DNA of 60,743 nt, the filler included, from Candidatus Woesearchaeota archaeon (lineage in GTDB: Archaea > Nanobdellota > Nanobdellia > SCGC-AAA011-G17 > CAYFGV01): NCBI GenBank assembly GCA_964342845.1. It is 3 parts of 3 records of this genome, joined end to end, with 100 filler letters (N's around TTAATTAATTAA, not from the genome) between each part and the next. Parts side by side here need not be neighbours in the genome. Positions count along the whole stretch, not along the records: positions 24,086 to 43,194 come from CAYFGV010000010.1; 2 more parts are not named here. The stretch is one strand, 5' to 3'. Both the position numbers and the translations under genes were made by a program. Shown here piece after piece: positions 23,986-43,294 of this stretch (the stretch's first letter is position 1; every line of letters begins with the position of its first letter). The notes under the pieces were generated by a model that ran no database searches, was not told the DNA's origin, and saw only the letters and a program-made list of their open reading frames with translations.

Positions 23986-24085
23986 NNNNNNNNNNNNNNN
24001 NNNNNNNNNNNNNNNNNNNNNNNNNNNNNTTAATTAATTAANNNNNNNNNNNNNNNNNNNNNNNNNNNNNNNNNNNNNNNNNNNN
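23986..24085. other. Artificial contig linker (N runs around TTAATTAATTAA)
   Basis: 100-nt N spacer with all-frame stop cassette; ORFs broken on both sides. Confidence 0.97.
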
Positions 24086-26844: not shown

Positions 26845-26934
26845 TTGCAAGGATTTCTACACGCGCATAAGATTTATAAAGGAGAATGACTTTCTTAGTT
26901 ATACCTGTGAAATAAGACGCGAAAGCAAAACGAG

Positions 26935-27738
26935 GTGATTTGTTTGAGATGGACCAATAACGAAATTGAGCTACTAAGGAGAGATTATGTTGATAAGGGA
27001 GAATTCTGTCTTTCTTCTGTGTTGAATAGATCTCCTAATGCTATCAGAATAATGGCTTCTAGAGATGGAATTAGTAAGCTTGCTTATCGAAAAGACATTA
27101 AGTTATCTGAGTCAGAAAAGCAGATTATTTTGGGGGGTTTATTTGGAGATCTTTATTCTAGGATTAAGGATAAATGTAAAAATGCTCGTATAGAGGGAGC
27201 CCATTGCAAAAAACAAGAAAAATATTTACTTTGGAAAGTTAATATGCTGAAAAGTTTATCTTTTAATTTGAGAAGAAATAAATTAGGATATTTGTCTTTT
27301 GAAAGCAGGAGATTCCCTTGTTTAAATTATTATCACAATCTGTTTTATAAGAATGGGAAGAAGGAAGTAACTAGACAGATTTTAGATTTGGTTGATAGAT
27401 TGGGGTTGGCTGTTTGGTATATGGATGATGGTTCTTATAAAAAGAGAGATAGGAACTGTACTTTACATACTAATGGGTTTACTTATGCTGAAAATTTGGT
27501 TATAAAGGAGTGGTTTGAAGAGAAATGGAGTATTTTTCCTAGTATATGTTCCAATACAGATCCTAAGAGGCATCCTGGTAAGAGATGGCATTATTTATAT
27601 TTTGGTACTAAGGAGGCTGAGAAGTTTATTAGTCTTATTAAAGATTATATTCATCCATCTATGTTGTATAAGATAGGAGTTTTCAAAAAGGAACTAAATG
27701 GAGGTGGTTTCTATGGTAAAAAAGGAAGAAGTAAATAG
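26935..27738 (+). mobile_element. Free-standing LAGLIDADG homing endonuclease (probable TTG start 26944)
   Basis: ILGGLFGD and LAVWYMDDG motifs, LHTNGFT..E..., SMLYKI end; no intein splice motifs. Confidence 0.85.
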
Positions 27739-27982
27739 ACCTATAAAAAAATTTAAGGTTGGACTTATAGAAGCAGCAGTTTGGGCAAATAAAAGAGAGT
27801 TTGATGGAAAAGAGGTAGAGTTTAAGACAGTTACTTTGAGTAGAAGTTATAAGAAGAAGGATGAAGATGTTTGGAGGAGCGAGGTGATTAATAATTTAAG
27901 AAGAAATGATCTTCCAAAGTTGATGGCTATTTTTGGGAAATTACAAGATTATTTGTATTTTGAGGTGCAAGAAAATGAGTAA
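27713..27982 (+). CDS. Small putative ssDNA-binding protein
   Basis: GGAGGTG RBS; IEAAVWAN...VTLSRSYK...W pattern; overlaps radA start. Confidence 0.5.
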   Translation: MVKKEEVNRPIKKFKVGLIEAAVWANKREFDGKEVEFKTVTLSRSYKKKDEDVWRSEVINNLRRNDLPKLMAIFGKLQDYLYFEVQENE

Positions 27983-28925
27983 ATTAAAAAAAGTAGAAGA
28001 TTTACCTGGTGTTGGTGCCGCTACAGCTGAGAAATTGAAAGAGGCTGGTTTTGATACTTTACTGAGTGTTGCTGTTGCAAGTCCTGGTGTGATTACTGAA
28101 GCTTCTGGTGTTGGTGAATCTGTTGCAAGAAAGATGATTCAAGCTTCTAGGAATGCTTTGGAAATGGGGTTTGAGTCTGGGATGGATTTATTGAAGAAAG
28201 CTGAAAAGATTGAAAGGATTACAACTGGAAGTAAAGAGTTAGATAAGTTGATTGGTGGTGGTATTGAGACTGGAAATATTACTGAACTATATGGTGGTTT
28301 TGCTTCTGGGAAAAGTCAAGTAGGTTATCAGATAGCTATTAATGTTCAGCTGCCGAAAGAGAAAGGTGGGTTAGGTGCTGGTGTTGTTTTTTTGGATACA
28401 GAGAGTACTTTTAGGGTGCAGAGGATTAAACAGTTAGCTGAAGCAGCTAGTATGGATGTTGAAAAGACTTTGAAGAATATCAAATGCGTTCGTTGTTTTA
28501 ATAGTGATCATCAAATGTTATTAACAGAGAAGGTTGAGGATTTGATTAAAGAAGGTTTTCCTGTTAGGTTGATTGTTGTGGATTCATTAATTTCTTTGTT
28601 TAGAAGTGAGTTTGTAGGTCGTGGTCAGTTGGCGGATCGTCAACAAAAATTGAATAAACATATACACACTTTGCAGAAGTTAGCTGATATGTATAACATT
28701 GCTATCTATGTGACTAATCAAGTTATGTCTAAGCCAGATACATTTTTTGGAGATCCTACTGCTCCTGTTGGTGGAAACATATTGGCACATGGTTGCAACA
28801 CAAGGATATATGTTCGTAAGGGAAAGAAAGGGACAAGAGTTGCTAAGTTGGTAGATTCAAGTTATCTTGCTGAGGGAGAGGCGATTTTTAGGATAACCGG
28901 AGAAGGGATTAAGGACATGGATTGA
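27975..28925 (+). CDS. radA: DNA repair and recombination protein RadA
   Basis: HhH LPGVG, Walker A GGFASGKSQ, LIVVDS, FRSEFVGRGQLADRQQKL, TNQV. Confidence 0.96.
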   Translation: MSKLKKVEDLPGVGAATAEKLKEAGFDTLLSVAVASPGVITEASGVGESVARKMIQASRNALEMGFESGMDLLKKAEKIERITTGSKELDKLIGGGIETGNITELYGGFASGKSQVGYQIAINVQLPKEKGGLGAGVVFLDTESTFRVQRIKQLAEAASMDVEKTLKNIKCVRCFNSDHQMLLTEKVEDLIKEGFPVRLIVVDSLISLFRSEFVGRGQLADRQQKLNKHIHTLQKLADMYNIAIYVTNQVMSKPDTFFGDPTAPVGGNILAHGCNTRIYVRKGKKGTRVAKLVDSSYLAEGEAIFRITGEGIKDMD

Positions 28926-29918
28926 AGATGTATAATTATTATACTATGGAAGATTATGAGTTAGTGATGTATTTGAGAAGAAAGTTTGGTTGGGGTATGA
29001 AAAGAATTTCAGAATATTTGCTGAAGAAAGATGGACGAAAAGTAGGGCATGGAGCTATTGTTGGATGGATATATTTGGGTAGGAAGCCTATCTACAATAT
29101 TAAAGAGATAAAAGAAGGTTCAGAGATACTTACTTTAGATAAGGCTTATATTCTAGGTGTGTTGTGTGGAGACGGTTATTTGACTACTGGGTATCGGGTT
29201 GGATTGGATTGTTGTGATAAGGACTTTGTTGAATATTTTCTACAATGTTTAAATAATGTCTATAGTATGACCTCAAAGATAAGGCTTAGGTATAGGGAAC
29301 GTACTAATTTCGGTGTTGCTAGACTGCAATATTCCCTTCAGATGTGTTCTAAACTTGTTACAAGGGATTTGCTGAGGTACTCTAAATCTTTTAAGTCTAA
29401 GGAATGGATCCTTCCGTCTGAGATAAAACAAGGGAATTTATTGATTAAGGCGTCGTTTCTTAAAGGTTTATTTGATTCTGAAGGGGGAATTAGGTTATTA
29501 CATAAAGGAGCAGGCTATTTGCAGGTGTGCTCTGGTAATAATAAATCTTTGCTTGAGGTCAAAGAGATGCTAGAGTCTTCTTTTGGGATACGTTGTAGTG
29601 TGAAGTTCAATCAGAACAAAGTAATGATTTTAGTCTCTACTAATTATGATTCTATCAAAGGTTTTTATGATAACATCGGATTTACAATTAAAAGGAAGCA
29701 GAATAGATTGGTTTCGGTTTTGAATTCATATAAAAGGAAAGGGATTAAAAGATATTCTTTAGATTTTAAGAGGGAAGCTATGCGTTTGTTGGATAGATGT
29801 GGTGACCATAGATTTGTTGGGCAACTTATGAATACATCTTATACAAATCTCTATGATTGGGAGAAAGCTGTTTTAAGTGGTAGATTAGATTTAAGTAGAG
29901 ATTAAGGATATAGATTAG
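28907..29918 (+). repeat. Imperfect direct repeat of the radA 3' end bracketing the endonuclease (28907-28925 and 29900-29918)
   Basis: g-att-aag-gac-atg-gat-tga (IKDMD*) versus g-att-aag-gat-ata-gat-tag (IKDID*). Confidence 0.75.
28922..29905 (+). mobile_element. Free-standing LAGLIDADG endonuclease (intein-type domain) with HTH-like termini
   Basis: AYILGVLCGDG and FLKGLFDSEG motifs; C-terminal RYSLDFKREAM...NLYDW HTH; no Hint motifs. Confidence 0.88.
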
Positions 29919-29954
29919 AAAAAAGAAGATTTAAATAGGAGGAAATATATATAT

Positions 29955-30200
29955 ATGGATATTAAAATGAAAACATTTACAGCAGTTATTCATAGAGAAG
30001 AAGACATGTTTGTGGCTGAATGTCCTGAATTAGGTACAGCTAGCCAAGGTAAGACAGTAGAAGAAGCGGTGAAGAATTTGAAGGAAGCTACTGAGTTGTA
30101 TTTAGAAGAGTTTCCCTTGGAAGGAGATAACGGCAAAGCTTTAATGACCACTTTTGAGGTGTCTGAACATGCCAAAACTGCAGAAGCTGTCAGGGCGTAA
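29955..30200 (+). CDS. hicB: HicB family antitoxin (short)
   Basis: FVAECPELGTASQGKTVEEAVKNLKEATELYLE. Confidence 0.9.
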   Translation: MDIKMKTFTAVIHREEDMFVAECPELGTASQGKTVEEAVKNLKEATELYLEEFPLEGDNGKALMTTFEVSEHAKTAEAVRA

Positions 30201-30399
30201 AACTCTTAAAATTCTTTGTAATAGGTTTGACTTTGAGATAACAGGAAGAACAGGGAGTCATGTTAGGATTTCAAAGATGACTAATAAGGGGAAAGTTGGG
30301 ACTGTTGTTCCTATGCATAAAGAACTTAAGACAGGGACTTTGAAGAGTATTCTGAGATTAGCTAAAGTAGATGAAGAGGAGTTTTCGAAACATATTTAA
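30169..30399 (+). CDS. hicA: HicA family mRNA interferase toxin
   Basis: MPKL...GSHV...VVPMHKELKTGTLKSIL. Confidence 0.9.
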   Translation: MPKLQKLSGRKTLKILCNRFDFEITGRTGSHVRISKMTNKGKVGTVVPMHKELKTGTLKSILRLAKVDEEEFSKHI

Positions 30400-30436
30400 A
30401 TTCTTTTTTTTATTTTTATTCTTGAGGTGATATTAA

Positions 30437-30634
30437 ATGGATAGTTTAGTTATGTTTAATGTAGGGCTGGTATTTTTAATTATTTGGAGTATGATTTGGA
30501 AAGGGATTGCTTTATGGAAGGCTGGTGTTAATAAACATCTGTATTGGTTTATAGCAATGTTTGTTTTAAATACTGCTGGAATTTTACCGATAATTTACAT
30601 ATTTAATTTTAGTAAGAAAAAGGGTAAGAAGTAA
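30437..30634 (+). CDS. DUF5652-like small membrane protein
   Basis: WKGIALWKA...WF...NTAGILPIIY. Confidence 0.75.
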   Translation: MDSLVMFNVGLVFLIIWSMIWKGIALWKAGVNKHLYWFIAMFVLNTAGILPIIYIFNFSKKKGKK

Positions 30635-31102
30635 TTATTTTTTCTCTTCTTTTTTAGTTTCTGTTTTTGGAGTTTCTTTTTTAACTTCTTTAGGTTTTTC
30701 AGCTTTAGTTTCTTTTGGTTCTTCTTTTTTAACTTCTGTTTTCTTTTCTTCTTTAGGTTTAGTTTCTTTAACTTCTTTTTTCTCTGGTTCTTTTTTAGCT
30801 TTTAATCTATCTTTTAATGATGTTTTTTTCTTAACTTCTTCTTTAACTTCAGGAGCATTTATCCAGTCAGCATAGAATTTATCATCTTTTTTAGTTACTT
30901 TAATTTTTATTCTTGGAGGAGGATTTTTCATTCCATGTTTCCATAATTCTTGATTTAAATATTTTCCAATTTTAAATTCTGATTTTAAGTGTCTTTTCAA
31001 ATATGCTTTTACAGTTCTAACTGATTTAGCTGTTCTTTTATAACGAGGACCTTTACTGAATTCTTTTCGTAAAGGTATTGTGTATACTTTTTCGTCTGCC
31101 AT
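30635..31102 (-). CDS. rpl31e: 50S ribosomal protein L31e with K/E-rich tail
   Basis: YTIPLR...KRTAKSV...LNQELWKHGMKNPP. Confidence 0.92.
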   Translation of the reverse strand: MADEKVYTIPLRKEFSKGPRYKRTAKSVRTVKAYLKRHLKSEFKIGKYLNQELWKHGMKNPPPRIKIKVTKKDDKFYADWINAPEVKEEVKKKTSLKDRLKAKKEPEKKEVKETKPKEEKKTEVKKEEPKETKAEKPKEVKKETPKTETKKEEKK

Positions 31103-43194: not shown

Positions 43195-43294
43195 NNNNNN
43201 NNNNNNNNNNNNNNNNNNNNNNNNNNNNNNNNNNNNNNTTAATTAATTAANNNNNNNNNNNNNNNNNNNNNNNNNNNNNNNNNNNNNNNNNNNN
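43195..43294. other. Artificial contig linker
   Basis: Same 100-nt N/TTAATTAATTAA cassette. Confidence 0.97.

Follow-up and report, generated by a model that had tools for sequence, protein, structure and literature searches.

A probable free-standing LAGLIDADG homing element at the 3' end of the archaeal radA gene

Intronless homing, as in SegF of phage T4 and the Seg/Mob family, is described mainly from phages in the portion consulted of one account (PMC13565253). In fungal mitochondria, the available sections on mORFs describe ORFs forming gene hybrids, with atp6 in Allomyces and with atp6, atp9, cox2 and nad3 in Glomus (PMC3630166, PMC6279837). A 2026 paper states, in the part at hand, that free-standing homing genes are generally confined to intergenic sites (PMC13619312). 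Full-text literature searches, with subscription papers and supplements outside their scope, yielded no report of such an element at archaeal radA or in Woesearchaeota, and the sections available of PMC7202290 and PMC10643990 contain nothing on a radA-end element. Here a locus of Candidatus Woesearchaeota archaeon is described in which a free-standing homing endonuclease element, with predicted cleavage activity, probably resides at the radA 3' end.

The radA locus and its LAGLIDADG gene

The window, meaning the whole stretch of 60,743 nucleotides that was analysed, joins contigs C9, C10 and C11 of this genome (G000) at N runs 23986-24085 and 43195-43294, the radA locus lying on contig C10. 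The relevant features are as follows.

26935..27738, plus strand: second, unrelated LAGLIDADG_2 ORF, leader of the radA operon (Pfam 4e-32; contig joint in run X3; homologs)
27713..27982, plus strand: small gene before radA (homologs in relatives checked)
27975..28925, plus strand: intact radA recombinase gene, 316 aa, the likely target gene (Pfam Rad51 5e-84; NCBIfam TIGR02236)
28905..28925, plus strand: tail copy T1, GIKDMD-stop, the radA end as read in frame, its final 7 nt shared with T2 (sequence)
28919..28935, plus strand: tail copy T2, IEDV-stop, not in the radA frame (position; GATGTATAR ending; 9-nt class preceding it)
28928..29905, plus strand: free-standing two-motif LAGLIDADG endonuclease ORF, 325 aa (Pfam LAGLIDADG_3 and LAGLIDADG_2 above cut-off; alignment; structure model)
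29898..29918, plus strand: tail copy T3, EIKDID-stop, an untranslated duplicate overlapping the endonuclease stop (sequence; tail profile)
29955..30399, plus strand: hicB-hicA toxin-antitoxin pair directly 3' of T3, a neighbour outside the element (Pfam HicA above cut-off, HicB-like below it)

The radA gene runs from an ATG at 27975 to a stop at 28925 and scores 453.8 bits against TIGR02236 (cut-off 361), and the small gene before it has no match in Pfam or NCBIfam. The T-tract usual 3' of radA is found at this locus only beyond hicA. A TGAAA-N6-8-CGAAA motif, often present twice, lies 5' of the small gene in six leaders (L006, L002, L320, L004, L310 and L326) and at 26908-26926 of the window, and is possibly an operator. 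Two assemblies carry two radA copies each, G012 (C120, C66) and G220 (C72, C11).

The family alignment places the endonuclease start at the ATG at 28928 rather than the TTG at 28922. The 325-aa protein contains two LAGLIDADG motifs, each ending in an acidic residue, and these residues (D82 and E185) are invariant in all eight aligned proteins. A pattern search recovers motif 2 in 25 of 25 clade proteins and motif 1 in 21, the rest being one truncated protein and three left uninspected. The structure model (pLDDT 84.6) has extra helical domains at both the N- and the C-terminus, and Foldseek matches it with probability 1.0 to I-WcaI, PI-PfuI, I-Tsp061I, I-SceI and I-DmoI. By motifs and modelled fold the product fits a monomeric LAGLIDADG homing endonuclease, with predicted site-specific cleavage of the element-free allele.

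Close relatives of this gene form a compact clade tied to radA. In a first survey of 100 relatives, the seven closest homologs, which were aligned as query, all lie after radA. Across the order the full-length element is present in 12 of 240 genomes (E < 1e-116; 8 of 29 families), the next match standing at 6e-59. With metagenomes added and a threshold of > 270 bits, all 24 distinct clade loci with upstream DNA sit after radA (23 once L157 is merged with L068; three more have no upstream DNA). The bit score drops from 275 to 205 at the clade edge, and monophyly receives an SH-aLRT of 98 in a quick tree. Carriers with titled records are Woesearchaeota or Nanoarchaeia MAGs; a 401-genome sample of the class yielded no copy beyond the order. 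The first-pass annotation had described a LAGLIDADG gene at the radA 3' end with neither intron nor intein, and the separate ORF, the empty Rfam search and the constant position after radA agree with it.

Among viral contigs no close homolog was found, and a viral vehicle was set aside on the eight weak matches there (best E 2e-8). At L004 (G030) the spot has been taken a second time, independently, by an unrelated LAGLIDADG ORF (52 bits) that lies beyond the radA T-tract. A gene starting like MKKEMLRRNYS is often seen 3' of radA or of the element (L007, L145, L148, L236, L301, L307, L004); presumably it resembles an integrase N-terminus, and it could offer right-hand homology for transfer.

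Duplicated radA tails and the origin of the gene end

The end of radA, T1 (GGG ATT AAG GAC ATG GAT TGA, 28905-28925), recurs across the endonuclease ORF as T3 (GAG ATT AAG GAT ATA GAT TAG, 29898-29918), 993 bp further 3'. The copies agree at 16 of 21 nucleotides, a score reached at 4 of 1,145,124 genome positions, T1 and T3 among them; about 0.002 such matches are expected by chance within 1.2 kb, and the genome-wide count rules out a chance likeness. Positions 28907-28918 are repeated at 29900-29911 with 11 of 12 nt identical, and the peptide pattern IKDxD-stop occurs only at these two sites in six frames of the whole genome. The duplication noted at first pass is thereby upheld, with its details amended. 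T3 does not follow the ORF, but overlaps its last 8 nt (stop 29903-29905); the differences are not restricted to third positions and the stop, since the codon in front (G/E) differs at its second position, and the peptides are not the same, the M/I change being non-synonymous. On a protein tail profile T3 scores 18.7, barely higher than the control maximum of 17.6, so its evidential weight lies in recurrence among relatives.

A further copy, overlooked earlier, spans the junction itself. T2 reads IEDV-stop in a frame shifted by one base from that of radA, and its stop overlaps the endonuclease start just as, in most occupied relatives, the in-frame D-V-stop overlaps it. The radA gene ends in GATGTATAR at 14 of 27 occupied loci (remnants counted) vs 5 of 69 empty ones, kin among these not being independent, and the nine nt preceding it at T2 belong to a class with a genome frequency of 2.6e-4. 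Judged by its sequence, T2 is the usual replacement end of the element, here present but unused by radA. Since this end is out of frame, the element gives radA only about 7 nt (M-D-stop) at this locus, where the gene has its own IKD followed by 7 nt of element read in another frame; the replacement C-terminus proposed at first pass survives to that extent only, the usual end being out of frame. The offset could follow either from misalignment of the left crossover by 13 nt or from 13 nt that were copied from T3 and inserted later.

Downstream tails in relatives were scored with a profile built from 26 empty radA ends and scanned over the 3' flank, with 107 control windows. Twenty-three of 28 rows were retained after removal of L140, which is identical with this locus, of L157, L159 and L244 (truncated), and of L067, which has just 8 nt of flank. 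A second tail, up to 16 codons long, scores above all 107 control windows at nine of these. The tail of G094 is AEAIFMITDKGIRDLE-stop and then a T-tract, and that of G091 is FEIKEEGVKDI-stop, fused to the ORF; three further loci have a copy of 3-4 codons recognised by eye. The control threshold is not entirely clean, as L244 gives a score of 19.3 inside its own truncated ORF, which was treated as chance. No tail exceeds the control at 14 of the 23 loci, and six loci keep the spacer or T-tract of radA itself before the ORF and have no tail. In all occupied loci the radA stop is in frame and 5' of the ORF, leaving the host gene whole without splicing.

The first-pass annotation had further supposed that T1 is foreign and T3 the displaced original. 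Taken strictly, T1 would be a complete recoded end supplied by the element, T3 the untouched original and IKDID-stop the end of the empty allele. Excising one 12-nt repeat with the intervening DNA would leave GIKDID-stop, and many T3 copies lead into a T-tract of the kind that is typical of empty alleles, 45 of 69 of which have it. In G186, T3 (GIRDL-stop) is nearer to the end of its congener G185 (GIRDV-stop) than T1 (GLEDV-stop) is. Compared with the nearest three empty alleles, however, T1 is the closer copy in 19 of 24 comparisons and T3 in 4, with 1 tie, in a test where T3 decays neutrally and the empty alleles are not very close. Asp is followed by V in 51 of 68 empties and in only one of nine T3 copies, which means that the T3 copies are no random draw from native ends, and the element-type end at this locus is T2, while T1 and T3 agree at 11 of 12 nt. 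So strict a polarity appears unlikely, and the displaced-original claim runs against the 19 of 24 comparisons as well as the T1 peptide of the empty allele in G005. A foreign contribution to T1 is nevertheless suggested by the D-V-stop overlap, by the G186 case and by the low synonymous divergence of the last 10 radA codons in four related carriers (8/54 differences vs 216/505 in the gene body, in pairs that are not independent). From these sequences the last radA codons in occupied loci look element-supplied.

Empty alleles bear on the same question. A trio with a common 3' flank comprises L146 (intact), G033 (a 79-bp remnant in which the ORF start is joined to the ORF end, then GIKDI-stop) and the empty congener G005; further empty congeners are G013, G182, G185 and G017. 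Set against L146 and G033, the stop region and 3' flank of G005, the nearest empty relative, continue T3, but its peptide, GVRDV, is that of their T1. The predicted conspecific allele ending in IKDID-stop was not seen in the contigs of 4 of the 10 runs with this locus, contigs being prone to drop rare variants. These contigs span the left junction of the occupied allele in X3, X6 and X7 and the right one in X3 and X5, with no joint that bypasses the ORF; a joint 28987-30638 was disregarded, one side being only 27 nt.

Taken together, a resident homing element would work as follows. Its product would cut the last codons of an element-free radA, and repair would copy the element in. The left crossover would fall inside radA, anywhere from the last few codons up to residue ~75, so that the element would supply at least D-V-stop; the right crossover would fall inside the downstream tail, acting as a short homology arm. 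With crossovers in the tail on both sides, both copies would usually be host/donor chimeras and neither would be cleavable.

Decay, RadA mosaicism and competing explanations

Intact, decayed and absent states coexist among relatives. The element is deleted or truncated in G103, G135 and G070, and remnants are undercounted, as the degenerate start pattern that found the G033 remnant missed G103, G070 and this genome. The element is under purifying selection, with dN/dS of 0.11-0.23 in all but the most distant of 12 pairs, where it is 0.38. Its dS stays below that of radA in each of the seven pairs that could be measured (0.16 vs 0.67 in one, 1.09 vs 3.08 in another), and it is younger than the radA of its hosts. 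The low dS and the three states are as repeated homing would give, and together with the position at the radA end point to a likely selfish element that homes without intron or intein. The patchy occurrence, decay and lateral spread suggested earlier are in keeping with the 12 carriers among 240 genomes, the remnants and the dS values; the element and EF-2 trees agree inside genera g63 and g107, and vertical descent with loss may therefore account for some of the spread.

RadA itself is mosaic in some carriers. GTDB congeners stay together in an EF-2 tree but not in the RadA core tree, where the AU test rejects congener monophyly for g16, g107 and g18 (p 2e-15 for g16, 3e-74 for G186+G185 and 0.0175 for g18), while g14 monophyly holds. 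In G057 and G070, the first ~75 residues of RadA are native and those beyond are foreign (21:0 vs 9:53 informative sites, p=0.002), with the switch near residue 75-89; a breakpoint in G186 is weaker (p 0.014-0.02) and one in G042 is not significant (p=0.6). G078 and G090 have exchanged RadA, in either direction. The tblastx comparison of flanks was noisy and was used for radA identities only. As a separate observation, in-frame inserts of intein size, putative inteins, interrupt 13 of 57 radA genes at several sites (G029, G050, G045, G032, G024, G021, G047, G009, G051, G049, G048, G015 and G040), and G048 combines inserts with the 3' element.

This mosaicism suits a mechanism of the SegF type, whereby the enzyme would cut further upstream in foreign radA and drag its own allele along, the tails being sloppy cross-species junctions. 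The switch in G057 and G070, the genera rejected on the RadA core and kept together by EF-2, and the six spaced loci without tails would all follow. However, no RadA breakpoint was detected in the carriers G094, G056 and G091 or in this genome, empty genomes are misplaced on the RadA tree as well (G058 vs G016, G196 and G090), and the intein-sized inserts could drive the same exchange. We consider this mechanism doubtful, and because empties are misplaced and such inserts occur, the 3' element is only a candidate cause of the mosaics.

Far less probable is a WhiA-like DNA-binding protein, domesticated and expressed together with radA, in which case the duplications would be old scars. WhiA proteins have lost the catalytic residues. 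Fold and sequence comparisons of the endonuclease both bring up WhiA, the helical domains at both ends are compatible with such a role, and so is purifying selection; yet both acidic motif residues are retained, the TIGR00647 (WhiA) score of 15.4 does not reach the cut-off of 44.1, and the gene, present in only 5% of genomes, leaves remnants and has a low dS. An intein was ruled out by the separate ORF beyond the radA stop and the lack of any intein domain by Pfam, and an unrecognised intron spliced out to join radA to T3 is scarcely credible, even though archaeal group I introns are reported in the part consulted of PMC6125680, given the in-frame radA stop before the ORF at all occupied loci, the erosion and frameshifts of T3 in G183 and G056, the absence of any Rfam match at the locus up to E=1 and the unpaired junction ends (-7.6 vs -12.8 kcal/mol for shuffles).

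Related gene-end genes and comparison with described systems

The leader ORF has an empty allele. In a contig of run X3, from a near-identical strain differing at 26885, 27722, 27730 and 27803, it is skipped by a joint from 26915 to 27700, and the ribosome-binding region is repeated on either side of it (26915-27738). Its six close homologs among 239 relatives all lie 5' of the small gene and radA, including those in G005 and G182, both without the 3' element. Class II D/K/N tRNA synthetase genes precede more distant relatives of the 3' gene at 8 of the 27 loci listed, and five of these synthetase-linked genes end in a clear copy of the synthetase tail; at L161, 12 residues of that tail are identical with recoded codons. 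Synthetase-linked LAGLIDADG genes that finish in a copy of the synthetase C-terminus were noted at L161:2260-3412, L170, L251, L217, L080 and L178, and at L215:2340-3640 a related gene follows a TRM5/TYW2 methyltransferase, with a diverged end copy ~60-110 nt downstream. A Woesearchaeota family of gene-end homing genes (radA 3' end, leader, Asp/Asn-type synthetase) independent of introns and inteins, in which the radA pair would be a cellular HEG-island swapping whole RadA ATPase domains between families, can be offered tentatively; if true, homologous gene flow among these symbiotic archaea would be frequent, and selfish elements would have shaped the recombinase tree.

Homing requires two alleles within one cell, and a homing element at radA would therefore mark DNA exchange among uncultured DPANN archaea. 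Invasion, decay and loss of the radA-end clade are visible across nine families, mosaic RadA is a caution against radA as a phylogenetic marker in the order, and the clade proteins are new candidate meganucleases with a predictable target. In contrast to the intergenic confinement stated in the section at hand of PMC13619312, the clade persists on a cellular chromosome at the coding end of a gene that would repair its cut.

With I-DmoI, I-Tsp061I and PI-PfuI the protein shares the fold and both motifs, but it has no surrounding intron or intein and carries added helical domains at both ends. The remaining comparisons extend as far as the consulted portions of the papers cited. The phage HEG-islands, in an article where the string 'archae' occurs 0 times (PMC10448857), likewise place two unrelated endonuclease genes around an essential operon, at its leader and 3' end, whereas the present pair lies on a cellular chromosome and its leader and 3' elements occur singly in the relatives checked. 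As with SegF, a free endonuclease gene stands beside a conserved gene, and mosaic RadA may reflect a co-transferred flank; unlike it, SegF and the Seg/Mob enzymes belong to other nuclease families, mainly of phages, and the SegF model has no terminal duplication (PMC13565253). The element fits the fungal mORF type, sharing a LAGLIDADG ORF between duplicated C-termini, a whole host gene and an ORF that sometimes enters the downstream tail (PMC3630166, PMC6279837). Duplications span 3-16 codons here vs about 17-90 in mORFs (PMC3630166, PMC6279837), and the downstream copy in Glomus is 91-98% identical to the gene of a relative, while T3 at radA is mostly not the closer copy. The radA element differs further from mORFs in its archaeal chromosome, in having the recombinase itself as target and in a host stop that overlaps the element start.
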